From: Dehalococcoidia bacterium
GTDB lineage: Bacteria > Chloroflexota > Dehalococcoidia > Lucifugimonadales > Australimonadaceae
DNA: 64,000 bases
Assembly: GCA_965261385.1 (NCBI GenBank)
Contig: CBDHDB010000001.1
Span: 1,205,418 to 1,269,417, forward strand
Direction: 5' to 3'
The position numbers and the translations under genes were made by a program. Shown one piece after another: positions 1 to 18,686 of the stretch. Position 1 is the stretch's first letter. Each line of letters opens with the position of its first letter. The notes below the pieces were generated by a model that saw only the letters and a program-made list of their open reading frames with translations, was not told where the DNA came from and searched no databases.

Positions 1-215
1 GCACGTCTGACCTGGGCATCATCTCCATGCGACGGCGATTGATCCGCGCGGCCAGGACGTTCGCCGAGTCCGGCGAAACTCCCTACGAAGTGATGACGCC
101 CGAGGTCTACGCGATCAGGTCGGACGCCGTCCTCATCCCCACCGAGGAGTCCTGGTTTGACCAGACGACCGATAGGCGCAAGGTGACCGCCGGCAACCCG
201 GACTGCCCCGCATAG
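1..215 (+). CDS. C-terminal fragment of a Rieske non-heme iron oxygenase (LigXa/phthalate 4,5-dioxygenase type), 5' end outside the window
   Basis: Frame from position 3 reads TSDLGIISMRRRLIRAA...VYAIRS, matching the C-termini of the paralogues at 1677 (STDSGIIHTRYRLL...FAIRS) and 27302 (TSDTAIIAMRRRLL). Confidence 0.8.
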   Translation, partial: TSDLGIISMRRRLIRAARTFAESGETPYEVMTPEVYAIRSDAVLIPTEESWFDQTTDRRKVTAGNPDCPA

Positions 216-317
216 AAAATCGTCATCCCGCGAAGGCGGGAACCTCGTATTTACCCCTCCCCCATCTGCGGGGGGCCGGGAGGGGGCAAAGCCCCCTCCC
301 CGTGGGAAGGAGTCGCC

Positions 318-1520: not shown

Positions 1521-1676
1521 GCGCGGTCCTCGCATCCCCCTACCGTCTTGAGGGAGGACTGAGGCGCTTCCCTAACCCCCCGTGTGCAATAGCAATCCTC
1601 CGTTTGCTAGAATGCGGTGCCGGTGCTTCGTCGCCGCCGATGTGCCGTATGTGGCCATATCGACTAGGAGGTCGCG

Positions 1677-3002
1677 ATGCTATCCAGGGAAGAGAATGAA
1701 CTGATGTGCCGCGTCGGGGCCGGGACTCCGACCGGAGAGATGCTTCGCCACTACTGGATTCCGGCGCTCATGTCGTCGGAGTTGCCCGAGCGCGATGGTC
1801 AGCCGCTCCGGCTGCGCCTGCTCGGCGAGGACCTCGTCGCATTCCGCGACACCGCTGGGAAGGTCGGCATGGTCGATGACCGCTGCCCGCACCGAGGCGC
1901 CGGCATGTTCTTCGGCCGCAACGAGGAGTACGGCCTACGCTGCGTCTACCACGGCTGGAAGTTCGACACCACCGGCGCGTGCATAGACATGCCGAACGCT
2001 CCTGAAGGCGAAGTCTTCAAGAGCAAGGTCGGCATCAAGGCGTATCTCTGCCAGGAGCGCAACGGCGTCATATGGACGTACATGGGCGCCCAAGAGTCCG
2101 CGCCCCCCTTGCCCGACTTCGAATGGAACATGGTGCCTGTGGAGCACCGCCACATCGCCAAGCGGCTGCAGATCAACAACTTCGTGCAGGCCCTCGAAGG
2201 CGACATCGACAACTCCCACAACTCCTACCTCCACACCAAGTTCCCCTTCCACATGTCCCAGCCCAACGACAAGACGATGGGCCCCTACTACAAGGAGCTC
2301 GACCGCTGTCCCGTGTTCGAGGCCGTCGACACCGACTACGGCGTGCTGATTGGCTGCCACCGCAACGTGGACGACGACCGCTACTACTGGCGTTTGAGCC
2401 AGTTCCTCCTGCCCTTCTACACCATGACCGGCCCCTACGGCGAAGACCCGACCAGGGGCTTCCGCGCGTGGATCCCCATCGACGATGAACACACGATGGT
2501 CTTCGGCGCCACCTACCACCCCAACCGCCCCCTCACCGAGGACGAGGTCCTCAACCTCGAGAAGCGCCCCGGCGTGTACAACGTCGGCGAAGGCGGGTTC
2601 CTCCCCATGGACCCGACCCTCCCAGGCAGCCAGTGGCGCCCGCGTCAGAACATCATGAACGACTTCTGGAACGACTATCACGCGCAGCAGACCGAGCGCT
2701 GGTGCGGCATCCCCGGCACCTTCGCCCAGGACTCCGGAATGCAAGAGACGATGGGGCCCATCTACGACAGGACCAAGGAACACCTCGTCTCGACGGACTC
2801 CGGAATCATCCACACGCGCTACCGCCTGTTGAACGCCGCCAAGGCTTTCCGGGACACCGGCGAGTTGCCCCCGAACGTCGACGACCCGACGCTGTTCGCA
2901 ATCCGGTCCGCCGCGACCGTCCTGCCGAAGGCGGAGGACTGGGTCGAGGCGATGAAGCAGCACCAGATCGCCTTCCAGCCGGTGAACCACGCGGGGGCCT
3001 AG
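1677..3002 (+). CDS. Rieske non-heme iron oxygenase alpha subunit (LigXa/phthalate type)
   Basis: Rieske CPH...CVYH; mononuclear Fe motif EGDIDNSHNSYLH; QD...QETMGPI; AGGAGG RBS. Confidence 0.92.
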   Translation: MLSREENELMCRVGAGTPTGEMLRHYWIPALMSSELPERDGQPLRLRLLGEDLVAFRDTAGKVGMVDDRCPHRGAGMFFGRNEEYGLRCVYHGWKFDTTGACIDMPNAPEGEVFKSKVGIKAYLCQERNGVIWTYMGAQESAPPLPDFEWNMVPVEHRHIAKRLQINNFVQALEGDIDNSHNSYLHTKFPFHMSQPNDKTMGPYYKELDRCPVFEAVDTDYGVLIGCHRNVDDDRYYWRLSQFLLPFYTMTGPYGEDPTRGFRAWIPIDDEHTMVFGATYHPNRPLTEDEVLNLEKRPGVYNVGEGGFLPMDPTLPGSQWRPRQNIMNDFWNDYHAQQTERWCGIPGTFAQDSGMQETMGPIYDRTKEHLVSTDSGIIHTRYRLLNAAKAFRDTGELPPNVDDPTLFAIRSAATVLPKAEDWVEAMKQHQIAFQPVNHAGA

Positions 3003-3021
3003 CGCCCCGTCGGGGTCGCAT

Positions 3022-4410
3022 TTGAGTAGCAGCCGCGCCTCATTGGTGTGCCGCGTTTGTGGCCACGCCAATGAGGCGGATGCCCGGTTTTGCGCCGCAT
3101 GTCGCGGACGTCTCCTACCTTCCACCGGCCCCTCGCCGGTGGAGCGATGGCGGGCCCGCGCGAGGCTCCGGCGCACGCTCATCCGGACGGCGGCGGCGGG
3201 CCTGGCGCTCTTCGCCGTGGCCTGGATGGTCGTCGAGAACATCGGGCTCGCCCGTTTCCTCCCTGACCCCGCATCAGACCTGACCTCGACCCTCGCGATC
3301 GGCGATTGGCCGACCGAGGGCGGAAGCCCCTTCCGGGCCGGCGCCGCGCCGACGCCGCCCGCCCCTCTACGCGGAGAAGTGGTCTGGGAAGCAGACCTCG
3401 GCGCTCCGCCGGGAGGTGGCGCCATCGTGCTGGACAGCAACGTGTACGCGGGCGCGACCGACGGCTCCATGCATGCCTTCTCCGCCTCGGACGGCGCCCC
3501 GCTCTGGAGCCGAGGCCTCGGAGCGCCCATCAGCTCGACCCCCTCCGCCGCGGGAGGCCTCATCTTCGTCGGAATGCTGGACGGACGGCTTGCGGCGCTA
3601 GACCGTCGGAACGGTGCCGTTGCGTGGACCTTCCAGACTGCCGGGCCGGTGCTCTCCTCTCCGGCCGTCGTCGACGGCGTGCTCTTCGTAGGCTCCAGCG
3701 ACCACCGGCTCTACGCGATCGACGCCCTCACCGGCAAGGAACGATGGAGCTTCGCCACGGAGGGGCGCGTCGCTTCCGGGCCTGCGGTGAACGAAAAGAT
3801 CGCGATAGTCACGTCCCAGGACAACCACATCCACTTCATCGATAAGCGGACCGCCAAACGACGGTTCGACTACCGAATAGCGCTTGCCGGCGGCTCTCCC
3901 GCGATCGCGGACGACTCGGTCTACGCCGCCGACATCCGCGGCACGGTCCGGCGTGTGCGCTGGGACAACCGAGAGTGGCCCTTGGAGAAAGCCGTCCGCG
4001 CCGTTCGCCGCTGGATGTTCCGCTGGGGAATGGCGAGCGAGCTACCGCCTGAGAAAGGCGTGGTCTGGGTGAGGCAAGAAGCAGGCGAGAGCTTCATCGG
4101 GACCCCCGCCGTCGACCACGAGCGAGTGTATGCGAGCACAGTCGTCGGCAAAGTGCTCGCGTACGACCGGCAAGCGGGCGCCGAGCGATGGCGGGCCGAC
4201 GTCGGCGCGCCGGCCGCAACCTCCCCCGTCGTTCTCGGAGACGAGGTCGTCGTCGGAACGCGAACAGGCCCCCTGGTCTCGCTCGACGCCGCCACGGGCG
4301 CGGAGCGGTGGCTTATCGACCTGAGCGACGGCGCGGCCCACGAAATCGCTGCTGGAGCCGGAGCCCTCTACGTCGCGAAATCGAACGGGACCATAGCCGC
4401 AATCCGCTGA
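3022..4410 (+). CDS. PQQ-like beta-propeller (BamB-like) membrane protein with N-terminal zinc ribbon
   Basis: CRVC...CAAC, one TM helix, repeated SSPAV / ALDxxTGxxRW propeller motifs. Confidence 0.8.
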   Translation: MSSSRASLVCRVCGHANEADARFCAACRGRLLPSTGPSPVERWRARARLRRTLIRTAAAGLALFAVAWMVVENIGLARFLPDPASDLTSTLAIGDWPTEGGSPFRAGAAPTPPAPLRGEVVWEADLGAPPGGGAIVLDSNVYAGATDGSMHAFSASDGAPLWSRGLGAPISSTPSAAGGLIFVGMLDGRLAALDRRNGAVAWTFQTAGPVLSSPAVVDGVLFVGSSDHRLYAIDALTGKERWSFATEGRVASGPAVNEKIAIVTSQDNHIHFIDKRTAKRRFDYRIALAGGSPAIADDSVYAADIRGTVRRVRWDNREWPLEKAVRAVRRWMFRWGMASELPPEKGVVWVRQEAGESFIGTPAVDHERVYASTVVGKVLAYDRQAGAERWRADVGAPAATSPVVLGDEVVVGTRTGPLVSLDAATGAERWLIDLSDGAAHEIAAGAGALYVAKSNGTIAAIR

Positions 4411-4469
4411 TTCCACTAAGCGGGATTTTCGCAGCTATGCGCCCACATTTTCCTCACCTGAGTTCTCGT

Positions 4470-4499
4470 TTGACAGGCCGTTAAACCCCTCCCTAGAAT
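4470..4499 (+). promoter_or_regulatory. sigma70-type promoter of the collagen-lipoprotein/ABC operon
   Basis: TTGACA (4470-4475), 18 bp, TAGAAT (4494-4499). Confidence 0.6.
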
Positions 4500-4561
4500 G
4501 CGCCCCTGTTGGACGCCCAAAACCCTATTCTCCGCAATGGGCGCAAGAGGGAGGATTTCCG

Positions 4562-5065
4562 ATGAGAATCATTCCAGCCGTTTGCTTCCTTATGCTTGCG
4601 GTCACACTCGTTGCCGCGGCATGCACGGGCGAAACGGGACCGGCAGGGCAGACTGGCCCCGCGGGACCGGCAGGCGCAGCAGGGCCGGCAGGGCCTGTGG
4701 GACCGGCTGGCGCCGATGGCGCTCAAGGCCCCCCCGGCGATCCTGCGCCCGCATCGGCTGCCGGAATCTCTCTCGATAAAGCGGTCTACACCATCGGCTC
4801 CGAGAGAACGTTCACCGTGACAGGATGGGGCTTCATCCCAGGAGAAGCAGTCCTCATCACCTTCCACACCGACGCCTACGGCCCTGGGACCATCGGGGGC
4901 GCCGACGTGAACGAGTTCGGCACGTTCCAACTAACCCAAGGCGGCCGGTTCAGGATGGACCGCGTCAGCTCGAGTCCCGGAACGTACACCGTCACGGCGG
5001 AAGGCCACATGGGCTCCTTAGCAACTGCCCCCATCACTTTCGTTGCCCCTGAACCGGCGGAGTAA
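4562..5065 (+). CDS. Collagen-like lipoprotein
   Basis: Signal peptide ending AAAC, 13 consecutive Gly-X-Y triplets, then a small beta-rich domain. Confidence 0.8.
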   Translation: MRIIPAVCFLMLAVTLVAAACTGETGPAGQTGPAGPAGAAGPAGPVGPAGADGAQGPPGDPAPASAAGISLDKAVYTIGSERTFTVTGWGFIPGEAVLITFHTDAYGPGTIGGADVNEFGTFQLTQGGRFRMDRVSSSPGTYTVTAEGHMGSLATAPITFVAPEPAE

Positions 5066-5097
5066 CTGACGGCAAGTGGACCAGGGAGGACTGACCA

Positions 5098-6873
5098 ATG
5101 ACGATTAGAAACCGTGCGCTCAAAGCGCTAATGCTTGTTACGAGCATTCTTGTTCTAAGCATGGCGCTGGCCGCTTGCAGCTCGGACGACCCCACTCCGA
5201 CCCCAACCACGGCTCCGGTGGCGCCCGCCCCCACGGCTACCCCGCTTCCCGATGGAAGCGGCAGTGCTCCCGAGCCCACACCCACGGCGATGGCGATGAC
5301 CGAGTCGCGCTACGGGGGCATCGCGAACTTCTCCACCCGCGCCGACCCGCCTCGCGGCTGGGACCCCATCCGGTCCGGCAGCATCAGCGTTCTCATGGCG
5401 GCGGGCTCCATCTTCGGCATGGGGAACATGATCCGGCAGTGCCCTGACGACGGTGCATCCGTCTGCCCCGGCGTCGCCGACGAGTGGTCAAAGAACGACG
5501 ACGGCACTGTGTGGACCTTCAAGCTCCGCGACAACGTCTACTGGCACGACGGGACTAAGCTGACCGCTCCCGACGTCAAGTTCTGGCTGGAGCTTGCCTC
5601 CTTCGGCGTGAAGGTCGGCGACGACGTGAGGCGCCCCGCCGGCTGGGACTTCATCCCGTGGGTCGAAAGCGTGGACGCGCCCGACGACTCGACCGTCGTC
5701 ATCACGCTGACGAGTCCGGTGTTCGACTTCGACCAGCTGCTCGCGGTCGACAACCAGATACTGGCGCACCCCCGGCACCTGATGCAGCCGGAGATCGACA
5801 AGGGCAACGTCAACGTCTCGCCGCTGGATGTCGGACTCGTAGGACTCGGTCCGTTCTACGTCGAGTCCTACCGACCGGGCAGCGTCGCCAAGATGCGCCG
5901 GTTCGACAATTACTACCTCACCGACGAGGGCGGGAACCAGCTTCCTTACCTCGACGGCATCGACTTCTTCATCACGCCGGACCCATCCGGCATGGACACT
6001 GCGTTCCGCACCGGGCGTCTCGACGCCACGGCCCGCGGCTCCGGGTTCCAGCTAACCCCAGAGCGGGAGAACGCCATCATCGATACCCTCGGCGCAGACA
6101 AGGTGCAGATCCTCGAGATGGCCCAGTCCAGCTTCTGGGCAGTGGCGTTCAACACGCTCCGTGAAGGACCTCTGCAAGACGTGAAGATCCGGCGGGCTAT
6201 CCACCTCTGGCTCGACCGCGACGAGCTAGTTGAGGTGACGTTCGGCGGCTTTGGAAAGGTCACCGGCATGTTCGACCCCGACACCGCGTGGGCTGTCCCC
6301 GGCCTCATGGAGACGCCCGGCTGGAACTCGGCCACCAAGGACGCCGACCGGCAGACGGCCAAGGGCCTTATGGCCGAGGCAGGCTACCCGAACGGTTTCG
6401 AGACCGAGTTCATGTGCCGCAGGTTGTGGGGGTTCGTGTGCGAGCCCATCGTCGGACAACTGGAGGCCCTCGGCATCAGCGTAGACCTCCAGCTCGTGGA
6501 CGACGCAACCCGGGCCTCCAGGACCCTCGAAGGCGCGTACGACATGGTGATGAGCGGGCCGACGGTGGCGTTGCCGAGTCAGTACCTCTCGATCATAGCG
6601 AGCCAGGGCTTCCAGGTGGCGGCGGACCCGAAGCACAACGACACCATGGTCGACGACTTCTTCACCCGTTTGGCCGCGGCGGGCAGCATCGAGGAGCGGG
6701 TCGAAATCTCCCGTGAGATGGAGCAGTACAGTGCCGTGGAGCAGGTCTACTCGGCCTCGCTATACACGGAGAACGCGCACTCGGTCGCCCGCGAGTATGT
6801 CATGGGCATCCAGGTGCCGATCGACAACTACCGGCGGAACTTGGACTTTGCGACGGTCTGGTTGGACAAGTAG
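5098..6873 (+). CDS. ABC transporter substrate-binding lipoprotein, family 5 (Opp/Dpp/Nik type)
   Basis: LAAC lipobox, PT linker, WTFKLRDNVYWHDG motif, GLGPF, PYLDGI. Confidence 0.92.
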   Translation: MTIRNRALKALMLVTSILVLSMALAACSSDDPTPTPTTAPVAPAPTATPLPDGSGSAPEPTPTAMAMTESRYGGIANFSTRADPPRGWDPIRSGSISVLMAAGSIFGMGNMIRQCPDDGASVCPGVADEWSKNDDGTVWTFKLRDNVYWHDGTKLTAPDVKFWLELASFGVKVGDDVRRPAGWDFIPWVESVDAPDDSTVVITLTSPVFDFDQLLAVDNQILAHPRHLMQPEIDKGNVNVSPLDVGLVGLGPFYVESYRPGSVAKMRRFDNYYLTDEGGNQLPYLDGIDFFITPDPSGMDTAFRTGRLDATARGSGFQLTPERENAIIDTLGADKVQILEMAQSSFWAVAFNTLREGPLQDVKIRRAIHLWLDRDELVEVTFGGFGKVTGMFDPDTAWAVPGLMETPGWNSATKDADRQTAKGLMAEAGYPNGFETEFMCRRLWGFVCEPIVGQLEALGISVDLQLVDDATRASRTLEGAYDMVMSGPTVALPSQYLSIIASQGFQVAADPKHNDTMVDDFFTRLAAAGSIEERVEISREMEQYSAVEQVYSASLYTENAHSVAREYVMGIQVPIDNYRRNLDFATVWLDK

Positions 6874-7003
6874 GCCAAGCCCCCTCCCACCCCCGCGAAA
6901 GGGGGACCCTAGCCCTCCCTCTCACAGACGGGGGGCTGGGGCGCATCCCCTCCCCCGGTCTACGGGGGAGGGCTAGGGAAAGGGAGAGCTTGAGGAGCGC
7001 GGG

Positions 7004-7972
7004 ATGCAGAAGTACATAGCGCGGCGGGTGCTGCTCTTCATCCCGACGCTCCTGCTCGCGAGTATCCTCATCTTCGGGATCCTCCGAGTCTTGCCCGGAG
7101 ACGTCGCCCTCGCCATCCTCGGACAAGAGGCCGTCGAGAGCGGCGGCGGCTACACCGAGACGCAGATCAGGGAGCTCCGCGCCGAGCTGGGTCTGAACGA
7201 CCCCCTGCCTCTTCAGTACGCCAAATGGGCCTGGTCGATGGTGAACGGCGAGTTCGGCGGAGAGTCGATCCGCTCCACCGAGCCGCTTTCGGAAATCATC
7301 GCGCGCCGCCTGCCGGTGACGTTGCAGCTCACCGTGTACACGATGGTGCTGTCCATGCTTGTGGCGCTCCCCCTTGGGATATTCTCCGCCTTATACCAGG
7401 ATAAGTGGCCGGACTACGTCCTCCGCATGGGGGCCATCTTGGGGCAATCGATGCCCAACTTCTGGATTGCGCTTCTCCTGCTGCTCTTCATGGTCACGCA
7501 GATCGGCTGGTCCCCGCCCCTGGGCTACGTGAATGTTTGGGAGAATCCGTTCCACCACTTCCAGCTCATGATTTGGCCCGCTCTGATTCTCGCCTGGCGC
7601 TTCAGCGCCTACGTCACCCGCATCACCCGCTCCGGCATGCTCGAAGTGTTGGCCCAGGACTACGTCAGGACGGCGAAGGCGAAAGGGCTGAGCCAGCAGC
7701 TGGTCGTGCGGCGCCATAGCCTGCCCAACGTGCTGATTCCCGTTATCACGTTGGGGGGCTTGGAGGTCGGCACCCTGCTCGGCGGCACGGTGATCTTGGA
7801 GAACCTGTTCGGCATCCCCGGCGTCGGTCAAGCTATCGTAGAAGCCGCCGTCGGAAGGGACTTCCCCGTGGTGCAGAGCCTGGCGATGATGCTCGTCTTT
7901 TTCATGCTCGCGCTCAACCTCGTGGTGGATATCGCTTACTCTTACGTCGACCCGCGCGTACGGTACGCGTAG
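7004..7972 (+). CDS. Peptide/nickel ABC transporter permease (DppB/OppB-like)
   Basis: DYVRTAKAKGL EAA loop, ends DPRVRY. Confidence 0.92.
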   Translation: MQKYIARRVLLFIPTLLLASILIFGILRVLPGDVALAILGQEAVESGGGYTETQIRELRAELGLNDPLPLQYAKWAWSMVNGEFGGESIRSTEPLSEIIARRLPVTLQLTVYTMVLSMLVALPLGIFSALYQDKWPDYVLRMGAILGQSMPNFWIALLLLLFMVTQIGWSPPLGYVNVWENPFHHFQLMIWPALILAWRFSAYVTRITRSGMLEVLAQDYVRTAKAKGLSQQLVVRRHSLPNVLIPVITLGGLEVGTLLGGTVILENLFGIPGVGQAIVEAAVGRDFPVVQSLAMMLVFFMLALNLVVDIAYSYVDPRVRYA

Positions 7973-7997
7973 GCGGACAGGTGAAGGTATAGCCGGA

Positions 7998-8921
7998 GTG
8001 GAACTCGGATCTACAGCCGCAAACCAAACGACCCTCGAGCAGCTTGCGCGCGAGGCAAGGCCCAAGCGCACGTTCGCGCAGAATCTCAAGCGGTTCGCGC
8101 GCAGGAAGCCCATCGGCGCCATCAGCGCGGTTGCGCTCATCCTCCTTGCCCTCGTCGCGCTGTTCGCGCCGTGGATCTCGACCCACGACCCGATCCGTTA
8201 CCAGGTGGCGGCCGAGCGGCTCGAAGGCCCGTCGGCCTCGCACTTCATGGGCACGGACAACCTGGGCCGCGACGTCTTCAGCCGGGTTGTCCACGGAGCG
8301 CGCATCTCGCTCCAGGTGGGATTCCTCGCCATCGTGCTCGGCACCGTCACCGGCATGGTCATCGGCGTGCTCTCCGGTTACCTTGGCGGCAAACTCGACC
8401 TGGTGGTGCAGCGGCTCGTCGACGTGTTGATGGGATTCCCCTTCATCGTGCTGGCCATGCTGCTCGTTGTCGCGCTGGGCGCGTCGCTGCTCAACGTGGG
8501 CATCGCCTTATCGGTCGCCATCGTCCCGCGAGTCGTCCGCCTGTCGCGGTCGAGCACGTTGAGCGTGAAGGAGGAGATGTACGTACTCGCCGCTGTGACG
8601 GTCGGCGTGAGCCTGCCCCGGATGGTGTTCCTCCACATCCTTCCGAACACCCTCGGCCCCGTCTTCGTCCTGGCGACGGGCGCCCTTGGCGGCGTGATCG
8701 TCGCCGAGGCTGGCCTGGCCTTCTTGGGCCTCGGCGTGCCGCCGCCGTCGCCTAGCTGGGGCGGGATGTTGAACGTCGGCGCGCGCGGCTACATGGAGGC
8801 CGCCCCCTGGATGGTCATCTTCCCGGGCATGGCGCTCTCCGTGGTCGTGTTCACGTTCGCGCTGCTGGGCGACGCCCTGCGCGACGTGCTGGACCCGCGC
8901 CTCCGGCGGGGCGACTCGTAG
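7998..8921 (+). CDS. Peptide/nickel ABC transporter permease (DppC/OppC-like)
   Basis: HFMGTDNLGRDVFSR, PSWGGML, GDALRDVLDPR. Confidence 0.92.
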   Translation: MELGSTAANQTTLEQLAREARPKRTFAQNLKRFARRKPIGAISAVALILLALVALFAPWISTHDPIRYQVAAERLEGPSASHFMGTDNLGRDVFSRVVHGARISLQVGFLAIVLGTVTGMVIGVLSGYLGGKLDLVVQRLVDVLMGFPFIVLAMLLVVALGASLLNVGIALSVAIVPRVVRLSRSSTLSVKEEMYVLAAVTVGVSLPRMVFLHILPNTLGPVFVLATGALGGVIVAEAGLAFLGLGVPPPSPSWGGMLNVGARGYMEAAPWMVIFPGMALSVVVFTFALLGDALRDVLDPRLRRGDS

Positions 8922-9010
8922 GCCAGGCGGAGCATCGCCTTGCTGTGCGCCCTGCACTGAGTAGAAACGTTTGAGACCGAGCGGCGCCTGCCGCTCATGG
9001 AGAGTCGTTC

Positions 9011-10018
9011 GTGGGAACCTTGCTGGAGGTCCGAGACCTCCGTACCGAATTCAACTCCGAAGGCGGCATCGTCAAGGCCGTCGACGGAATCAGCTACGAC
9101 CTCCAGGAAGGTGAGACCCTGGGCCTCGTCGGCGAAAGCGGCTGCGGCAAAAGCGTCAGCGCCCTCTCGCTGCTCCAGCTCATCCCCAACCCGCCCGGCA
9201 GAATCGTAGGCGGCGAGGTCATCTTCGAGGGCCAAGACCTGCTGAAGCTCTCTGAGAGGCAGATGCGGAGCATCCGCGGCAACAAGATCGCCATGATCTT
9301 CCAAGAGCCGATGACCTCGCTGAACCCGGTCCTGACCATCGGGCGCCAGCTCACCGAGACCGTCGAGGTTCACATGGGCCTCTCGCCGGAAGCAGCCGTC
9401 CGCCGCAGCGTGGAGCTCCTCGGCATGGTCGGCATTCCCGACGCCAAGAGCCGCCTGAGCAACTACCCCCACCAGTTCAGCGGAGGCATGCGCCAGCGAG
9501 TAATGATCGCGATCGCCCTCAGCTGCAACCCCCGGCTGCTGCTCGCCGACGAAGCCACCACCGCCCTCGACGTGACCATCCAAGCCCAAATCCTCGAGCT
9601 CATCCAGCGGCTGAGCGCCGAAGCGGGCGCGGCCGTCATCATCATCACCCATAACCTCGGGGTGGTCGCCCGCTACGCGGACCGCGTCAACGTGATGTAC
9701 GCGGGCAAGATTATCGAGCGCGGGACGGCGGACGAGATCTACGAGATGCCGAAGCACCCGTACACGCGCGGCCTATTGGGGTCCGTGCCTAGGCTCGACG
9801 TGGACCGCGAAGATAGGCTCGCGTCCATCGAGGGCATGCCGCCCGACCTCGACCGGCTCCCGCCCGGCTGCTCGTTCGTCCCCCGCTGCCCCCATGCGGA
9901 CGACCACTGCCGCGCCGAGATTCCGCCCCTCTCGTCGAACGACGGCAGCGACCATGTCTACGCGTGTTGGAAAGGACACGAGTTCGGGCCCATGGAGCTC
10001 GTGCAGGCGAAAGCATGA
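9011..10018 (+). CDS. Oligopeptide ABC transporter ATP-binding protein (DppD/OppD-like)
   Basis: Walker [22 protein letters not shown]-terminal Cys cluster. Confidence 0.93.
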
Positions 10019-11031
10019 CCCAGACCTCCCCTGCTCCGACCGCGCCGCCGTCGCCCCAAGACGTCCTCCTCGAAGTCAACGACGTCAAGATGCACTTCCC
10101 CGTGGTGGCCGGCGTCATCCTTCAGCGCCAGGTTGGAGAGATCAAGGCCGTCGACGGCGTCAGCTTCACCGTGCAGCGAGGCGAAACATTGGGCCTCGTC
10201 GGCGAGAGCGGCTCGGGCAAGACCACCATCGGACGCGTCATCCTCCAGGTCTACCGCGCCACGAGCGGCCAGATCGTGTTCGACGGCATCGACCTTGCAA
10301 CCCTCAAGGGCGGGGCCATGCGGGCGATGCGCCGCCGCATCCAGGTCGTCTTCCAGGACCCCTACAGCTCCCTCAACCCCCGCATCAAGACCGGCGACAT
10401 CGTTGGTGAGCCCCTCAAGGTGCATAAGCTGGTCGAGACCAAAGAGGAGTACCAGTCGCGCGTTGCCGACCTCTTCCGCACCGTTGGACTGAACCCCAAC
10501 ATGGCCGACCGCTACCCCCACGAGTTCAGCGGCGGGCAGCGCCAGCGGATCGGCGTCGCCCGCGCCCTTGCCGTGCAGCCCGACTTCATCGTCGCCGACG
10601 AGCCCGTCTCCGCCCTCGACGTTTCCATCCAAGCCCAGCTCATCAACCTGCTCGAGGACCTGCAGAAGCAGTTCGGACTCACCTACCTCTTCATCGCGCA
10701 CGACCTCTCCGTCGTACGCCACATCTCCGACCGCGTCGCCGTCATGTACCTGGGCAAGATCATGGAGGTGGCGGACAGAGTCAGCATCTTCCAAGACCCC
10801 CTGCACCCCTACTCCAAAGCGCTCATGTCCGCGGTCCCCATCCCCAATCCGCGCGCCGAGCGCAGCCGCGAGCGGATCATCCTCGAAGGAACGATCCCCA
10901 GCCCCCTTCACCCCCCGACAGGGTGCGTCTTCCACACCCGCTGCCCGATGGCCATCGACGAGTGCAAGATCACCGTCCCCCAACTCGAAGAAAAACGCCC
11001 CGGCCACGCCGTAGCCTGCATCCGCGTGTAG
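10015..11031 (+). CDS. Oligopeptide ABC transporter ATP-binding protein (DppF/OppF-like)
   Basis: [16 protein letters not shown]; ATG at 10015 overlaps the upstream stop (ATGA). Confidence 0.93.
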
Positions 11032-11499
11032 GCCGCTCCCAATCCTCTTCCGTCATTCCCGCGAACGGAGACCTTCGCGTAAACCTCACACTGGTTCGTG
11101 GTGAGCCTGAGGCTGCTGTATTGCGAACTTTCCGATGGGCAGTCGACTTGTGGAACAGCAAGTCTGCCGTGCCGCGCCAGCCTAGGGGGTAGTCGGGCCA
11201 CGGCCTGCGGGTATCGGTACCTCTTGTTGTATTGCGTCCTACCCATGTCCATGGACGAGAGGCAATCACAACGGAAAGATCCGATACTCGTGGGCGGTAG
11301 ACCTGAACCCTCCGGCAAGCAACCGCACCCAAGGCCTATGACGTGGTTCGAGTCCCGGCAAGTACGGCGGCGTTCGCCGGTCGGGTAAATTCCGCTAAAC
11401 TGGGCGGCCTCTCAGGGGGTGGGGTCGAAGGGCGGACTAGTCCGCATTAGGCCCTCGACCTCAGCCCGACGTGCCGAGGTGTGCTACGCTTTTCGGGTA

Positions 11500-11721
11500 A
11501 TGCCCACCTCCCGCGATAACCGCCGCCTGGTGACCTACGTCCCGGTTGTCATCGCGACTGAGATCGAGCGACGTGCACGAGCTGACGGCCGGACGGTGAG
11601 CGGCTGGCTGTCGCGCCTCATCGCCGAGGCACTCAGCGACGTCGACCAGGACGTCGAGGTCAGGCTCCCGCCGCTGGCAACGCCCTCATCACTCGTAACC
11701 CCGCAGGCCCCTGCAGCGTAA
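11500..11721 (+). CDS. Small ribbon-helix-helix (CopG/Arc-like) DNA-binding protein, 3' end cut by IS66
   Basis: RLVTYVP...IERRARADGRTVSGWLSRLIAEAL fits an RHH pattern. Removing the IS66 and one TSD copy extends the frame as ...PAAAWVDNRSAPTLTPA* (stop at 13204). Confidence 0.6.
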   Translation: MPTSRDNRRLVTYVPVVIATEIERRARADGRTVSGWLSRLIAEALSDVDQDVEVRLPPLATPSSLVTPQAPAA

Positions 11722-13150
11722 CTGTTCAGAGTTGAGGAGAGAGGAGCAGTTGGCGGCAGGCGGCGAGGGGATTCAGGCCTTGGGCCCGCCAGGAGCCGAA
11801 GAGCGAAGTCAGGGTCATCTTGGCGTCGGTCCCTTGCGCTGACCGAGTCCCCCCGCTGACCTTGCGGCTCACGACCAAGTGACGCAGGCTGCGCTCGGCG
11901 GCGTTGTTGTCCGACGGCGCCGCCGGTTCGCCCACGAAGACGAGGAGTTCCTTGATGTGGCGCTCGATGCGACGGCACAGCTTGGCCTGGGCTGCCGCGC
12001 GGTCATCCAGGAAGGGACGGCAGAGGGCCAGGAGGCGCTGTTCCCAGGCCTGTTGTGCGGCGCGCCGCTGCTTTTCCTTGGGATGGGCGAAGGCTTTGGC
12101 CTCAGCGTAAAGCCCATGGACGGCTTCGGCCCACTGGGCCAGCCGGCCGTCATCGGGGTAGAGGCCCCGCAGGTCGTGGATGTCCCGCAGCAGATGGACC
12201 CAGCACCGCTGTTTGGGGCCGTCGTAGTGGTGGTAGGCGGCGTAGAAATCGCAGACCAGCACCCCCGCGAACCCGTCGCCGAGGACTTCATCCACCACCG
12301 ACTTGCCTCGGCCACGCCGCAGGAAGTAGCGGTCGGTGGGCGTGCTGAACGTCCACACATAGCCGTTGGCGCCGTTCTCCCGCCAGCCGGTCTCATCGGC
12401 GTGGACCACCGGGCTGCCGCGGATGCGCTCCAAGATGCCCGCCACTGCGGGCCGGGCCTTCTCCGCCGTGCGCTGGGTGGCTGCGACGATGGCTCCCACG
12501 CTGAGGCGCAACTGATGGACGGTGCGCAGATACCATTGGATGCTGCGGATGGGCAGCCTCCCCTCCTCCCGCAGGGTGGCAATCAGGCTGACCAGGTTGA
12601 CTCCCAGGCGCTGCTTCCCCAAGGCAGCCCTGTCCAACTCTGCCGAGGGGAGGCAGTTGCGCCGGCAGCGGGGACAAACCCGGGCGATGAAGACGTGCTC
12701 GGTGACTTGCGCGGGGACCCGGGGCAGGTCGATGACCTCCCGGGTGCGATGGGCCCAGCCGCCGGACAACGGGGTCCCGCAATCGGGGCAGCTCTCCACG
12801 ACGTGCTCCACCCGGTGGGTGGGGGCCATCCGTCGACGGGAGAAGCCATGGGGCCGGGGCTTCCGGGGCTGCTGGGGGGCCGGAGGTTTCGGGCTGGACT
12901 GTGGCTTGAGGCCGGGCATTCCCGATGGGCCGCCCGGTTTGGCTTTGTCCTCCAACTGGGCAATGCGCCGTTCCAAGCGCCCAATGACCGTCTGCTGCTG
13001 GACGATGAGGGCGATGAGTTCGTCGCGGCGGGCGGCGTCCAAGTCGATGCGGGCATCCATGTCATCTCTATCACCGAACTGCCTCGGTCAGCGCTAGCCC
13101 TTAGGAACACCACTTTTAGCCAATCCTCCTCACCAACTCTGAACAGGTAC
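11718..13150 (-). mobile_element. IS66-family insertion sequence (single-ORF, ISBst12-like group)
   Basis: 17-bp terminal IRs GTAACTGTTCAGAGTTG / GTACCTGTTCAGAGTTG (1 mismatch); 8-bp target duplication CCTGCAGC at 11710-11717 and 13151-13158. Confidence 0.93.
11726..13060 (-). CDS. IS66 family transposase
   Basis: CPDCG...CPRC zinc finger, HADETGW, CDFYAAY, QRCWVHLLR, NNAAERSLR. Confidence 0.95.
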   Translation of the reverse strand: MDARIDLDAARRDELIALIVQQQTVIGRLERRIAQLEDKAKPGGPSGMPGLKPQSSPKPPAPQQPRKPRPHGFSRRRMAPTHRVEHVVESCPDCGTPLSGGWAHRTREVIDLPRVPAQVTEHVFIARVCPRCRRNCLPSAELDRAALGKQRLGVNLVSLIATLREEGRLPIRSIQWYLRTVHQLRLSVGAIVAATQRTAEKARPAVAGILERIRGSPVVHADETGWRENGANGYVWTFSTPTDRYFLRRGRGKSVVDEVLGDGFAGVLVCDFYAAYHHYDGPKQRCWVHLLRDIHDLRGLYPDDGRLAQWAEAVHGLYAEAKAFAHPKEKQRRAAQQAWEQRLLALCRPFLDDRAAAQAKLCRRIERHIKELLVFVGEPAAPSDNNAAERSLRHLVVSRKVSGGTRSAQGTDAKMTLTSLFGSWRAQGLNPLAACRQLLLSPQL

Positions 13151-13396
13151 CCTGCAGCCGCATGGGTTGACAACCGGTCAGCCCCGACCCTCACACCCGC
13201 CTAGACGGAAGCCCTACCCCCGCCGTCGCCACGTCTGCGACGACAACGACGGGCCTCGATGCCGACGAGGTCCGAGCCCAGGCGGATCCCGAGTACGCCG
13301 ACTGGCTACGACGGAAAGGACTCCGACCATGACCTGGTCCGTCTGAAAAGGGAAAGCCCCGCCAAACGGCGAGGCTCTCCCGGACGGCCAGCCAAG

Positions 13397-15381
13397 TGTT
13401 AGTGACGGTTTGAAAATGACCCCGTGATGACGGAATGGAATTGACCCACCCCTGAGCAAGAGCATCCTCCCTGCAGACTGACGGGGAGGAGAACGTTGCT
13501 GAAAGGTGGGACGATGAAAGACCTGTACGAGATGAGGGGTCAGGGGCATTCGATCCGCGGGATCACACGGGAGTTGGGCGTCTCCCGGAACTCGGTGCGC
13601 AAGTATCTGAGGTCGCCGGGAGTGCCGCAGGCGAAGCAACGACCGCCGCGGGCGTCCAAGCTGGACGCCTACACCGGCTACATCGACCGCCGGTTGGGGG
13701 AGGGTCTGGACAACTGCGTCGTGCTGCACCGGGAGTTGCGGTCGCTGGGCTACGAAGGCGGCTACACGATCCTGAAGGCCTACGTGTCGCCACGCCGTCG
13801 TCGACAGCCCCGCGCGACGATGCGGTTCGAGACGGAGCCCGGCGAGCAAGCGCAGGTGGACTGGGGGAGCTTCAGCTACGTCGGCGCAGACGGACGCAAG
13901 CACCGGCTCTGGGCGTTCGTGATGGTGCTGGGCTGGTCGCGAGCGATCTACGTCGAGTTCGTCCGGCGTGCGGACGTGGCGAGCTTCATGCAGTGCCACG
14001 TCAACGCGTTCGAATACTTCGGCGGGGCGCCGCGGCGGCGCCTGTATGACAACGCGAAGGTGGTGGTGCTGGGCCGGGATGCGGACGGGCGTCCGGAGTG
14101 GAACCGGCGGATGCTGGACCTGTCGCTGCGCATCGGATTCGAGCTGCGGGTGTGCCAGCCGTATCGGGCACAGACGAAGGGCAAGGTGGAGAGCGGGGTC
14201 AAGTATGTGCGCGGCAACCTGTGGCCCAGCGTCCGCTTCACGGACGACGCGGACTTGAACCGGCAGACCCTCGAGTGGTGCGACAGCGTGGCGAACCGGC
14301 GTGTGCACGGGACGATGGGCCGGCGTCCCTGGGAGATGCTGGCCGAGGAGCGGGTCCACCTCGGAGGGTTGCCGGAGCGTTCGGGACTGGCGCCGTATCT
14401 CAGGGACGACCGCAGGGTGGCGCACGACGGCTACGTGCACTGGGAGGGCTCCCGCTACGGTGTGCCCTGGCGGTGGGCGGGAGCGACGGTCCAGGTGGGA
14501 CAGCGCTCGGGGACGGTGGAGATCTGGACGGGCGACCAGCGCTTGGCCAGTGGGAAGGGTTGCCCAGGGGCCGAAGCGCTCGACAATACGCTGGACGCGG
14601 CGGCCGGCAAGCAGTTGACCTACCCGGAGATGCTCGCCGAGCTGCTGGGCGTGGAGGTCAACGCTCGCCGCGAGCGCTACCTCACCACGAGAACCAAGCT
14701 CGCGCATCTGCCCTTCCAGCGCTCCATCGAGCAGTTCGACTTCCAACCCTCCGTCGACGAGCGCCAGGTCAAGGAGTTGGCCAACCTCGCCTTCGTCGCC
14801 GAAGCCACCAACATCCTGCTGCTCGGACCGCCCGGCGTGGGCAAGACCCACTTGGCCGTCGCATTGGCGCTCAAGGCGATCGGGCACGGCTATGGCGCTT
14901 ACTTCGTTCGCGCCTACGACCTGATGGAAGACCTCAGGAGGGCCCAGGCCGAGCAGAACCTCGGGCGGCGCATGCGTGTCTACCTCGCTCCCAAGGTCCT
15001 CGTCGTCGACGAGTTCGGCATCTGGCCCTACGACAGAGACGCAGCGACTGCTTTCTTCACGCTGGTCTCAGCCCGCTACGAACGCGGGAGCATCATCCTG
15101 ACCTCGAACAAGGGCTTCGGCGAGTGGGGTGAGCTGCTGGGCGACACCGTCATCGCCTCAGCCGTCCTTGACCGGCTGCTCCACCACAGCCACATCCTCA
15201 ACATCAGGGGGGAGAGCTATCGTCTCAAGGAGAAGCGCCAAGCGGGCCTGTTCATCTCGCATCACGTGCTCAGCACAACGCCGGACGGGCAGACGACAAC
15301 TGACAGAATCGCTGGACATAGCGGCGGGGTGGGTCAATTCTAAACCGTCACACCGGGGTCAAAAGTAAACCGTCATTGACA
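13397..15381 (+). mobile_element. IS21-family insertion sequence with internal deletion(s)
   Basis: TGTTAGTGACGGTTT... and ...AAACCGTCATTGACA ends with repeated subterminal motifs; 4-bp target duplication CAAG at 13393-13396 and 15382-15385. Confidence 0.92.
13496..15343 (+). CDS. In-frame fusion of IS21 transposase IstA and helper ATPase IstB
   Basis: IstA: HTH, FETEPGEQAQVDWG, YDNAK, KGKVE. IstB: GPPGVGKT, LVVDEFG, LTSN, LDRLLHH, GESYR. One continuous 615-aa frame. Confidence 0.88.
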   Translation: MLKGGTMKDLYEMRGQGHSIRGITRELGVSRNSVRKYLRSPGVPQAKQRPPRASKLDAYTGYIDRRLGEGLDNCVVLHRELRSLGYEGGYTILKAYVSPRRRRQPRATMRFETEPGEQAQVDWGSFSYVGADGRKHRLWAFVMVLGWSRAIYVEFVRRADVASFMQCHVNAFEYFGGAPRRRLYDNAKVVVLGRDADGRPEWNRRMLDLSLRIGFELRVCQPYRAQTKGKVESGVKYVRGNLWPSVRFTDDADLNRQTLEWCDSVANRRVHGTMGRRPWEMLAEERVHLGGLPERSGLAPYLRDDRRVAHDGYVHWEGSRYGVPWRWAGATVQVGQRSGTVEIWTGDQRLASGKGCPGAEALDNTLDAAAGKQLTYPEMLAELLGVEVNARRERYLTTRTKLAHLPFQRSIEQFDFQPSVDERQVKELANLAFVAEATNILLLGPPGVGKTHLAVALALKAIGHGYGAYFVRAYDLMEDLRRAQAEQNLGRRMRVYLAPKVLVVDEFGIWPYDRDAATAFFTLVSARYERGSIILTSNKGFGEWGELLGDTVIASAVLDRLLHHSHILNIRGESYRLKEKRQAGLFISHHVLSTTPDGQTTTDRIAGHSGGVGQF

Positions 15382-15701
15382 CAAGCAACGGTGTGCGGGG
15401 ACCGGGCCCGACTGTCGTCTGATTCTACCCCCGCGAGCCACTCGACGCGCCTCCCGCACGCCTGCGCGTAGAGCGGCCTCTACGCCCCTCGGCCATGGAA
15501 AAATGGGGCAGCCCCCACCCTCAGAGGGCCGGGTGGCCAGCCCGCGCCGCCGCCCTGGGCATCCTGGCGGTGCCGGCGCGGGGGATTCTCGGGCCTCGGC
15601 GCGGCATTCTGCTATTCGGGAAGGGCGGCGTGGGGCGACTCCCGGAGCCCACGTCCGCCCCCCCTAACGGGGGAACGGGGGCGGTGTGCACGCTCAGGCG
15701 T

Positions 15702-15775
15702 GAGCGCACGCCTAGAGCGCGGGGGCCAGCGACATTGAGCGCACGCCTAGGCGCGGGGGCTAGCGACATTGAGCG
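15702..15775 (+). repeat. 34-35 bp tandem repeats (iteron-like) at the 3' end of the Rep-like gene
   Basis: GAGCGCACGCCTAG(A)GCGCGGGGGC(C/T)AGCGACATT at 15702 and 15737, partial third unit at 15771. Confidence 0.75.
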
Positions 15776-16748
15776 GGGTCAGTCGGCTGCTTCGGCGGTG
15801 GCGGTGGCAGGACGCGGCGGCCCACGATGCGGAGCTCGCCCGCCTTCTCCAGCTTGTGCAGCGTCTCCCACCCCTCTGTGACAAGCTCGCGCCCACGTTG
15901 CCGCGACGATAGGGGGCGCGTGATGGCTACCACGTCGGCGTCGCTGAGCTCGCGATACCGCTGCGGGTCCTGCACCTGCACCCACATCCCGCTGGGCGTT
16001 CGCATGCGCGTGACGCCCGGATTCCACCACTCGTAGCTCAGATTGAGCAGCGTGGTGTAGGCGACGGAGGACTTGGCGCCCCACTCGCTGAGCGACTGTG
16101 GCACAAACGGCCCGTCCCCCGAGCCGGGCGGCAGATCCACGATGAAGTCCGCTTCATCGTGGAGGGGGATTGGCTTCGGAGGGAGGCCGGACATGAGCAC
16201 GATGCGCTGGAAGCCTCCGCGTCCTGTGGCGGGGTCGTGCCACGGGATTTCCAGCGCATCGAGGGTGGCGCGTGCCTTCAGGAGTCGCGGCCAGTACTCC
16301 GTGGGCCTGGGTTGCCGAGCGCCTGGGTACAAGCCATCGAGCAACTGGCGGAGCGTCACGTTGAACGCGACGGGTTGCCCCGCCTGGCGCTCGACGTAGG
16401 GCGCGTACAAGACGGCCTCGATGAACAAGCGCATCGCGAGGGGCGCGCCCGGCCCTCCGCTGCGCTGCGGATTCACGTCGCCGAGCTGGTAGAGCTGGAT
16501 AGGCAATGCGGGGCCGTGGTGGTCGCCCTCGAAGCCGGGCAAGACGAGCTGGCCGCGCTGGTGCGCCTAGCGGCCCGCGGATGCTCATCGCTCACCATCG
16601 CCAGCTTCGCGGGCAGATGGCGCTTGAGCCGGAGGTTGGGCGCCGCCACCAACGGCCGCTCCAGCCAAGCGACGATTAGGGGATAGAGCGGGTTCCTCCC
16701 GTCGCGGTCGTCCTCGGGGTACTCCATCACCAGATTGACGAGGTCCAT
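15760..16748 (-). pseudogene. Frameshifted mobile-element protein, possibly a replication initiator
   Basis: Overlapping protein-like ORFs 16473-16748 and 15760-16542 in different frames appear to be one gene broken near 16550; function inferred from context only. Confidence 0.45.
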
Positions 16749-17045
16749 GGCGGAGGCTTAGATCGCTATACGCTCGCCGGCCGGCCATGTCCACCCGGCG
16801 AGTCCCCCGTGCAACCACCCCGTGAAGCGCATGGTCTACCGTGTGGGTGACCCCTTCTCGCGGACTACTGTCGTTACGTCAACTGGCGGAACCCATCGAC
16901 CACAGCGGCGGATAGGCGCGGTCTGCAGTTGTCTGGGTTGACGCGATTCCGCCGCGATCGCACGCGCCTTTCGTCAGCGGCCGACAGCCCGTTCACGCCT
17001 AGGGTGCCGGGGCGTGGGATTCGTCACCAAGGGGTCGCACTCCCA

Positions 17046-17074
17046 GGGTTCCCCCGCACACGCGGGGATAGACC
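17046..17074 (+). CRISPR. Solitary type I-E CRISPR repeat unit (no array, no cas genes)
   Basis: GGGTTCCCCCGCACACGCGGGGATAGACC: CCCCGC-ACAC-GCGGGG hairpin and ATAGACC 3' handle resemble the type I-E repeat GTGTTCCCCGCGCCAGCGGGGATAAACCG; no second copy about 61 bp up- or downstream. Confidence 0.75.
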
Positions 17075-17260
17075 TGCAGCACACGGTCAGCCTGGCGCTT
17101 CTCGCGGAGCCGGTATCAGGCTGCGGTCCCGCGGTTACAGCCGTGCTCCAATCATGGAGATAGCGAGGTGCGGCCGTGTCACGTTCTACCGGGCAGGCTC
17201 ACGAACACAGGGAACCCTCCCCACACCACGCTCAAGACAGGGTAACGACAACAGACTACG

Positions 17261-18421
17261 TTACGAGGAGCCCATGATGGCCGTCGCCCACTGCTCCATG
17301 ACCTCACGCCGCTGCTCGAACAGGTCGGAGCGCTGGTAGCTGATCTCCAGCGAAGAGCCCGCGACATGCGACAGCGCCAGCTCCGCGATGACCCGATCGA
17401 TACCGGACTCAGCCGCCCACACGCGGAAGCTACTTCTCATGCCGTGCGGTGTCGCCTGGATGCCGTTCTCCCTGAACAGCTTGGAGACCGTAGCGTCGCT
17501 CATCACTCGACCTGTCGGCGACGGGAAGACGAGGCCGGAGTCGCCAGTGAACTCCCGAGCACAGTCCAAGACCGCCATCGCCTCCGGCGACAGCGGGACG
17601 CGGTGCTCGCGCGCCGATTTCATGCGCGAGGCCGGGATGGTCCACGTCGCGGAGTCCAAGTCAATCTCCGCCCAGCGTGCGCCCCGAACCTCACCGCTCC
17701 TGGTAGCCGTCAGCACGAGGAACCGGACGGCCAACTTCGTCGTCTCCGCAGCGTCCGATGCCCCTATCGTCCCCAACGCAGCGTGAACATCGCGCCAGGG
17801 GAGAGCGCGCTGGTGCGTCACCTTCCTACCCGCCTTTGGCAGTGCCGCGACCACGTCGCGCGCCGGGTTGTCCGTGCGATATCCCATGCTGATGGCCCAC
17901 TGCATGACCGCGGAGATGTACCCGCGCGTCTTCCGGGCGGTTTCGCGACGGTTCGTCCAGATCGGCAACAACACGTTGAGCAAGTCCGCGCTGGTGATGG
18001 TGTCCACGCGAAGGTTGCCGATGGCCGGGTGGACGTGCGCATCGAGGCGTGCCCGCCATATCGACCCCGTCCTTGTTCCGTCCTTCCAGCTCTCGGCGTT
18101 CATCGAAATCACCTTCTCCGCAGCCTGCCGGAGGCTTGGAATCGCCGCCCTTCGCTTGCGGTCCGCCAACGGATCGACACCGGCGCGAACTGCCTTTGCG
18201 TTCTCGATGGCGAGCGCGCGCGCTTCTGCCAGCGAGACGAGCGCAAGCGGTCCTAACCCGATGTGCGTGGGTCGCCCGTTGATGCGAAGGCGTTGTATCC
18301 ACGACTTGGTCAGCCCTCCGCTTGCGCTAGGCCTTACCAGCAAGGACAATCCGTAACTGCCACGCCCCCCGTCGGAGTAGCGGCCAGGTTCCTTAACGGT
18401 CCGCACGAAAGCAGCCGACAA
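17261..18421 (-). CDS. Tyrosine recombinase/integrase (P4-like, with N-terminal arm-binding domain)
   Basis: PGRYSDG..GLSLLV..K.W arm domain; catalytic TATRSGEV, MKSAREHRVPL, HGMRSSFR, LSH, Y. The true start may lie a few codons upstream. Confidence 0.93.
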   Translation of the reverse strand: MSAAFVRTVKEPGRYSDGGRGSYGLSLLVRPSASGGLTKSWIQRLRINGRPTHIGLGPLALVSLAEARALAIENAKAVRAGVDPLADRKRRAAIPSLRQAAEKVISMNAESWKDGTRTGSIWRARLDAHVHPAIGNLRVDTITSADLLNVLLPIWTNRRETARKTRGYISAVMQWAISMGYRTDNPARDVVAALPKAGRKVTHQRALPWRDVHAALGTIGASDAAETTKLAVRFLVLTATRSGEVRGARWAEIDLDSATWTIPASRMKSAREHRVPLSPEAMAVLDCAREFTGDSGLVFPSPTGRVMSDATVSKLFRENGIQATPHGMRSSFRVWAAESGIDRVIAELALSHVAGSSLEISYQRSDLFEQRREVMEQWATAIMGSS

Positions 18422-18686
18422 GGACGATGGGCGGGTCAGTGCTCGCTGAATGGTTGTTACCTCAGTTGTACCTTTTGGATACTATACTACGGCGAATCAC
18501 AATGGACGGCTACGGACTGATGCACTAGGCCGTCATGCGGTGCATCGTGAATCGAAGCGGTGCTAGACGGACAGTAACGGACGGGCTTATGGAGTCTCGC
18601 GGTCACCAAACGTGACATCAGGACGCGGCGTGAAAGCGCCGCGTTTCGCTTTACATGAGCACTACGTGGAAGGAGGGGAGCAGCCC

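Follow-up and report, generated by a model that had tools for sequence, protein, structure and literature searches.

The window analysed here is a stretch of 64,000 nucleotides that corresponds to positions 1205418-1269417 of C1, one of the two contigs (C1 and C2, 4.23 Mb) that make up the host genome. Its first part belongs to an integrated island, which carries, close to one of its ends and in the non-coding DNA located between a Rep-like gene and an integrase gene, a single copy of a CRISPR repeat. The features of this part of the window are the following (window positions).

1..18595, no strand: part, within the window, of a ~21.6-kb island inserted at tRNA-Lys
11700-13151: IS66 copy inserted in the island
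13396-15382: IS21 copy inserted in the island
15760..16748, minus strand: broken Rep-like gene, no Pfam, PHROG or PDB sequence match
16749..17046, no strand: upstream non-coding stretch, in which any plus-strand promoter for the repeat unit, divergent from the Rep-like gene, would lie
17047..17074, plus strand: solitary repeat unit, 28/28 match to the host type I-E CRISPR repeat
17052-17057 / 17062-17067, plus strand: stem read from the sequence, with the loop at 17058-17061 and the tail ATAGACC at 17068-17074
17067..17068, plus strand: predicted Cas6e cut site, at the foot of the stem on its 3' side, as for type I-E Cas6e
17075..17260, no strand: downstream non-coding stretch, up to the integrase stop, holding a weak hairpin at 17108-17122; 95-96% identical to the sister copy on C2
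17261..18421, minus strand: intact P4-type tyrosine integrase gene (int), 386 aa, with Arm-DNA-bind_3, Phage_int_M and Phage_integrase domains (Pfam)
18596..18609, plus strand: attR, a 14-nt copy of the tRNA-Lys 3' end (CTCGCGGTCACCAA)

The attL site of the island is an intact tRNA-Lys(CTT) gene located ~3 kb before the start of the window (C1:1202358-1202434), and the copy found in attR is one G shorter than that of attL (14/15-nt direct repeat). In two sister genomes, G001 and G002, collinearity with C1 extends to tRNA-Lys(CTT) and resumes directly at window position 18596; both therefore display the empty site. Together with the copy of the tRNA 3' end, this empty site identifies the ~21.6 kb lying between tRNA-Lys and attR as an inserted island. 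The integrative element that an earlier note on this DNA had proposed is thus borne out by its integrase domains, its bounds and its empty site. The cargo includes a GFO/IDH/MocA-family oxidoreductase, a Rieske oxygenase, a PQQ-repeat protein and a five-gene peptide ABC transporter. The int gene lies at the attR end of the island, and the repeat ~1.5 kb inside this end. An attachment site made of the repeat itself was rejected, since the junctions of the element are tRNA-Lys and 18596-18609 and the repeat lies 1.5 kb inside.

The integrase has a 97% copy on C2 and nine paralogs at 40-47% in the same genome. No orthologous island was found elsewhere: among 61 genome loci the best relatives of the integrase reach 55% identity at most, among 80 metagenome loci 54%, and none of these loci carries a repeat of I-E type (one unrelated regex match in the 61, none in the 80). 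Among 40 related genomes, only G005 (67% DNA identity) and G011 (64%) match int, both without the repeat, and tblastx comparisons with 10 paralogous islands gave only noise outside int. The Rep-like gene consists of two minus-strand pieces (16473-16748 and 15760-16542). Its frameshift corresponds to a deletion of 25 nt at 16565 relative to the contigs assembled from runs X9, X11 and X18, i.e. three of the four runs examined, the deletion being shared by X3; by frame arithmetic, the 25 extra bases of the X9, X11 and X18 contigs join both reading frames. Its homologs are mostly metagenomic proteins of 420-450 aa. As for the name Rep-like, it is a lead only: language-model look-alikes include proteins of plasmid replication-initiator families (Rep3_N, TrfA, RepC or RepA_C) in minorities of their members (0.92, a recognition below the usual bar), and searches of Pfam, PHROG and PDB returned no sequence match. 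Globally, the island is, judging by its sequence, decaying in this genome, as it displays IS66 and IS21 insertions, a frameshifted Rep-like gene and, in its sister copy, a repeat split by an IS.

The plus strand of the window reads GGTTCCCCCGCACACGCGGGGATAGACC at 17047-17074, which is a single intact copy of the conserved 28-nt unit. The preceding base, 17046, is the counterpart of the variable final base of the preceding 33-nt spacer in the host arrays and lies outside the conserved unit. The repeat with its hairpin and ATAGACC handle had therefore been recognised correctly in the earlier note, but at a length of 29 bp, one base more than the conserved unit. Within the unit, CCCCGC (17052-17057) pairs with GCGGGG (17062-17067) around the loop ACAC, and this stem is identical when read on either strand. 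The hairpin is present in both the MFE and the centroid folds predicted for 16990-17180, the overall fold stability of this 191-nt stretch being not unusual (z = -1.6). Allowing up to three mismatches, the repeat is matched once in the window and not at all in 100 shuffles. The sense strand of the repeat is the plus strand of the window, because the main array of the host follows cas2 directly and in the same orientation, and because the degenerate repeats are found at the far ends of the arrays. Type I-E Cas6e cleaves at the 3' base of the repeat stem.

The host carries the cognate system. A single cas locus, located on C2, encodes Cas3, Cse1, Cse2, Cas7, Cas5, Cas6e, Cas1e and Cas2e, all of which reach NCBIfam I-E models, and no second copy of any cas gene was found in the genome or, as had been claimed, any cas gene in the window. 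Searching the whole genome with up to six substitutions yields 224 copies of the repeat: five arrays of 190, 17, 7, 5 and 2 repeats (221 in total), the window copy and two degenerate copies in the cas locus. The array of 190 repeats adjoins the complete cas3-to-cas2 operon, and several of the array pieces adjoin IS copies. The window copy agrees with the array consensus at 28/28 positions, as it does with the arrays of two congeners, G003 and G004, which carry 261 and 179 copies of the same repeat. The search for a host I-E locus with a matching repeat, recommended in the earlier note, thus ended with a complete operon and 221 array repeats, and the concern that the sequence might be a genome-wide REP was set aside, all other copies lying in arrays apart from the two degenerate copies of the cas locus and the IS-split sister copy. 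The three genomes contain 216 (host), 256 (G003) and 165 (G004) distinct spacers, none of which is common to any two of them; this lack of sharing suggests spacer turnover.

The cas locus and one of the arrays call for some observations of their own. Between the cas3 stop and the cse1 start, on the strand opposite to the cas operon, lies a mini-array (L164 7126-7197 (+), i.e. C2 2204125-2204196) that comprises in order a degenerate repeat keeping the hairpin, a 33-nt spacer and a near-perfect repeat. By its layout, it is a regulatory crRNA-like element of a known kind (CreA/CreR). Its spacer has no seed target within 700 nt, and the cas3-cse1 intergenic region displays no DNA-level conservation in G003 and G004. 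A repeat-like hairpin in the sense orientation, six substitutions away from the 29-nt repeat, is located at L164 1984-2012 (-) (C2 2198983-2199011), in the 89-nt gap separating the cas6e stop from the cas1 start; it could be a candidate Cas6e site in the mRNA of the cas operon, uncoupling the interference genes from the adaptation genes. Two spacers of an orphan array (C2 257790-258799, the first 1.5 kb of which are in L008) match the host's own contig C1, at 333768-333799 (32/32) and 671674-671706 (32/33). The bases upstream of these self-targets are unlike an AAG-type PAM, and one of the two self-matching spacers is unusual in being 43 nt long and containing internal repeats.

The repeat is located 187 nt past the int stop and 298 nt ahead of the Rep-like start, and is antisense to both of these genes, which are co-directional; therefore, the unit would need a promoter of its own. 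The surrounding region (16749-17260) holds no ORF with coding-like GC3, so that the non-coding site proposed between the Rep-like gene and the 3' end of the integrase gene is retained; an ORF of 136 aa (16929-17339) was rejected as a gene since it fails this GC3 filter. The unit is also alone. The single match in the window agrees with the earlier claim that it contains no second repeat. Furthermore, scanning 120 nt on each side with the whole repeat, its 3' half, its tail and its 5' part revealed no partial second repeat above the level of shuffled sequences (57 to 500 of 500 shuffles equal or better). At the registers where neighbouring repeats would be expected, 5/28 (next repeat) and 10/28 bases match. 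The weak AGCC..GGCT hairpin reported downstream is indeed present at 17108-17122.

The flanks of the unit do not resemble the leaders, trailers or spacers of the host arrays, all array starts having been inspected, and a remnant of an array at its original locus was rejected on this ground, no leader, trailer or old spacer being common with the host arrays. BLAST of the flanks in the genome finds the sister island copy as sole match. In 300 other genomes of the order, the flanks are absent beyond chance-level matches of 28-33 nt, and the 24-nt cores of either flank have no match among viral contigs. One of the matches in the order, 26/28 with 17082-17109 (L178 1501-1528, in G090 and G177), was considered as an old spacer and rejected: it lies in a PEBP-family gene of two genomes belonging to another family of the order, and is read as chance because it is out of spacer register and its seed is unmatched. 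The nearest IS end is 1.66 kb from the repeat, which is not directly bordered by any recognisable spacer, leader or IS end. Scanning 16500-17400 for sigma-70-type promoters and terminators revealed no site; as the promoter scan also returned nothing at the tRNA cluster and at the main CRISPR leader, it says little for this organism. No acr/aca-like gene or small HTH ORF was seen among the neighbours scanned, which are the integrase gene and the Rep-like pseudogene.

A second copy of the island is present on C2. Window positions 16869-18608 have a 96.7% identical counterpart there, which is part of a larger island copy and in which the same repeat, at the corresponding position, is interrupted within its loop by an insertion of 2945 bp. 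This insertion displays IS21-type ends (TGT..ACA), a 4-bp target duplication (GCAC) and a nested IS of 2.57 kb; the split repeat spans L165 4599-7575, i.e. C2 1140598-1143574. As the same repeat is found at the same place in the diverged copy, the unit is older than the split of the two island copies. The sister copy, like the window, holds a single repeat and no array, which answers the question of whether a relative has a full array at this place. The identity of the repeat between the copies gives no sign of selection, because a 28-mer would remain unchanged at 3.3% divergence by chance about 4 times in 10. At the start of the window, a cargo block of 11 kb (1-11143) is 99.94% identical to C2 1094758-1105900, versus 96.7% at the integrase end; this higher identity points to a recent conversion or duplication of the block.

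The stretch is also present in 20 public runs from eight studies (24 runs listed, none on record as RNA). In the contigs of all four runs examined, from four studies, each flank is joined to the repeat: contigs of the left flank run through the repeat to 17073 or 17074, and others extend into int from a start at 17050 or 17078. As these k=31 contigs break at the repeat, the number of repeats between the flanks in the other samples is not readable from them. One low-depth contig of X18 bridges 16872-17144 with 19 bases missing somewhere within 17005-17119, and may correspond to a variant devoid of part of the repeat.

Among IMG/VR contigs, exactly one holds the 26-nt core of the repeat. This phage contig (L168, 6494 bp, ~52% GC) carries genes for the large and small terminase subunits and contains the full 28-mer once, at 5385-5412 (+), between flanks unrelated to those of the island; no second hairpin of the repeat kind is found on it. 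The phage unit is co-directional with the neighbouring genes and is located 52 nt before a start codon preceded by a ribosome-binding site. From its sequence context, the phage contig appears as an independent carrier of a solitary repeat unit matching the same I-E system. Conversely, searching the 652 spacers of the three genomes (216 from the host, 436 from G003 and G004) against either island copy or the phage contig gave no credible match; the best is 16 nt exact, and two others of 20-21 nt with two mismatches lie in the part found only on C2.

Judged by these features, the unit of the island is a solitary repeat unit (SRU): it matches the repeat, is intergenic, is devoid of partial repeats nearby, is carried by a mobile element and is located away from the cas genes. 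The class and its mechanism have been described by Camara-Wilpert et al. (2023, PMC10651486), whose SRUs are intergenic, lack partial repeats and come from data sets of viruses and plasmids. According to the same source, ~90% of the viruses carrying SRUs infect hosts with CRISPR-Cas, 83% of the SRUs of these viruses match the host subtype, and RNA anti-CRISPR (Racr) candidates directed against I-C, I-E, I-F and V-A systems inhibited them. RNA anti-CRISPR activity is the only role of SRUs known from experiments. With RacrIF1, Cas6f and a filament of Cas7f assemble on the RNA located upstream of the Cas6f cleavage site, Cas5f and Cas8f being absent, and inhibition is dose-dependent (PMC10651486). 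Co-location of Racrs with acr/aca genes is frequent but not obligatory, and a Racr would be expected to have its own promoter within ~250 bp upstream and to be expressed as a small RNA.

The unit resembles these SRUs and Racrs in being a single intergenic repeat on a mobile element, without partial repeat or cas gene nearby, in a host of the cognate subtype; going by the cas operon and arrays, the host does encode the I-E subtype that such a Racr would face. It differs from the published ones in several respects. Indeed, its carrier is a tRNA-integrated island with metabolic cargo instead of a virus or a plasmid; no recognisable promoter and no acr neighbour were seen, and the unit is antisense to both flanking genes; finally, the repeat is an exact copy of that of the host rather than a mere mimic. 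The class is already known; what is new in this case is the tRNA-integrated carrier with its metabolic genes, the lineage, which is uncultured, and the pairing with a phage case. Full-text literature searches retrieved no description of SRUs on such tRNA-integrated islands, which is not proof of their absence. The rank of strongest non-coding signal in the window, which the earlier note had given to the repeat, appears too high, since the class has been described before and the island that carries this candidate is decaying.

The most likely working mode of the unit is that of an RNA anti-CRISPR directed against the host I-E system, a reading that we hold tentatively, at somewhat less than an even chance. 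In this mode, whose steps of transcription, Cas6e cleavage and inhibition we infer from the comparison with known Racrs, a plus-strand transcript initiated within the 298 nt upstream would form the repeat hairpin, to which the host Cas6e would bind before cutting after G17067. Devoid of 5' handle, the RNA upstream of the cut would next trap Cas6e and Cas7 in unproductive complexes, which would dampen interference and primed adaptation against the island on cell entry. Such a decoy effect would need strong expression, since one chromosomal copy would compete with more than 220 array repeats. As the island is decaying in this genome, the unit may also be the leftover of a function that was useful while the island was mobile. 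As to its origin, a host-type array is the most likely source, whether the repeat was captured directly or is what was left after an island-borne mini-array collapsed.

The earlier suggestion that the element sequesters or redirects the host Cascade is retained insofar as the repeat is genuine, solitary, host-matching and carried by an island; the redirection of CreA type is not. In this alternative, a crRNA-like regulator (CreA/CreR/crlRNA), the unit and the 33 nt located downstream would guide Cascade to a partly matching promoter. The length of 33 nt is that of the spacers of the host system, and the host carries such a mini-array in its cas3-cse1 spacer. However, no second repeat or repeat-like hairpin follows, even in degenerate form, the register where it would be expected matching at 5/28 bases and partial matches remaining at shuffle level. 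BLAST of the 33 nt retrieves only the sequence itself and the sister copy, which differs at guide position 3; its seed has one other site in the genome (12/12, at an unrelated place on C2), which is below the mean of 1.7 obtained for 30 shuffled guides. Lacking paired repeats and a seed target, its two defining features, a crRNA-like role is not supported by the sequence and would be very surprising. Mini-arrays of this kind, encoding crRNA-like RNAs, are reported in ~19% of bacterial I-E loci by Shmakov et al. (2023, 10.1101/2023.03.03.530964). The unit is similar to them as a repeat-derived sequence that is located outside an array and would rely on the host Cas6 and Cascade; unlike them, as they sit inside cas loci and contain two repeat-like sequences around a spacer partly matching a promoter, it consists of one repeat without target, on an island located on another contig. 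The mini-CRISPR arrays of viruses and plasmids, which are described as serving conflicts between elements (PMC10651486, PMC11656645), likewise involve a mobile element borrowing a host-type repeat, and a collapsed mini-array is a plausible origin of the unit, although neither spacer nor second repeat is left in it. Prophage attachment sites that mimic CRISPR repeats, described by Varble et al. (10.1101/2020.10.09.333658), also place a repeat near the integrase gene of an integrative element; here, by contrast, the att site is the 3' end of tRNA-Lys, and the repeat, located on the 3' side of int, is 1.5 kb away from the junction, within the island.

Nearly as likely as the RNA anti-CRISPR reading is an inert scar, i.e. 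a fragment of a host array, or what remains of a mini-array after its collapse, left by recombination in an IS-rich and rearranged genome, functionless and too young to have eroded. The genome indeed contains five array pieces (2, 5, 7, 17 and 190 repeats), several of them beside IS copies, and many SRUs located in cas loci were judged to be spurious duplications by Shmakov et al. (10.1101/2023.03.03.530964). The decay of the island and the IS-split sister copy fit such a scar, as do the lack of any sign of selection on the 28-mer, its antisense orientation relative to its neighbours, the possible 19-nt deletion variant in X18 and the fact that none of the 652 spacers targets the island. Against it, the insert is exactly one whole repeat, with no spacer, leader or IS end abutting it and the nearest IS end 1.66 kb off, in flanks that match the sister copy only; moreover, the same exact repeat is found solitary on an unrelated phage contig, and such a double accident is harder to explain. 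A role in the processing or termination of transcripts of the island itself, which would couple island expression to the host Cas6e, is improbable. On the minus strand, the stem, formed in a read-through transcript of int, could pause or stop transcription before the Rep-like gene; on the plus strand, a Cas6e cut could trim RNA antisense to int. The position of the unit between two co-directional genes, 187 nt past the int stop, and a CCCCGC/GCGGGG stem that is the same on both strands would suit this role, and Cas6e sites in mRNA may be used, as the cas operon has a sense repeat-like hairpin between cas6e and cas1. However, the minus strand has no U-run after the stem, and a terminator would not need full identity of GGTTC and ATAGACC. 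Very remote, finally, is a seed or remnant of an array still accepting spacers, that is, a minimal leader-plus-repeat unit. In type I-E, one repeat preceded by a leader is enough for adaptation, and the k=31 contigs of the other samples are compatible with extra units between the flanks; nevertheless, the upstream sequence is unlike any leader of the host arrays, and both copies of the genome hold exactly one repeat.

Returning to the RNA anti-CRISPR reading, an extended version, in which the island uses a perfect host I-E repeat as an RNA decoy and a phage of the same host clade does likewise independently, is rather doubtful. If true, repeat mimicry would be a general entry ticket for elements invading this heavily armed lineage and could explain how two self-matching spacers are tolerated in the genome. 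If the unit is active, RNA anti-CRISPRs would extend from phages and plasmids to chromosomal islands with metabolic genes, in a little-studied, uncultured lineage with high GC content and very large I-E arrays, and one repeat would have two natural, independent carriers, the island and the phage. If the unit is inert, it would show cleanly how fragments of arrays are dispersed and preserved in IS-rich genomes, and would warn against taking every lone repeat found on a mobile element for an anti-CRISPR.

Some minor observations concern the surroundings of the unit. Just outside attR, a methyltransferase-like gene reads as two overlapping ORFs on the plus strand (18612-18935 and 18911-19426), which may reflect a frameshift. 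Upstream of the Rep-like gene, a 32-nt box (16853-16883) recurs at three other places on C2, two of these copies being located within ~3 kb of paralogous integrases. The first 11 nt of this box (CTTCTCGCGGA) recur at 17098-17108, 24 nt past the repeat, and eight of them resemble the att core; the box and its 11-nt recurrence may be candidate protein-binding sites.
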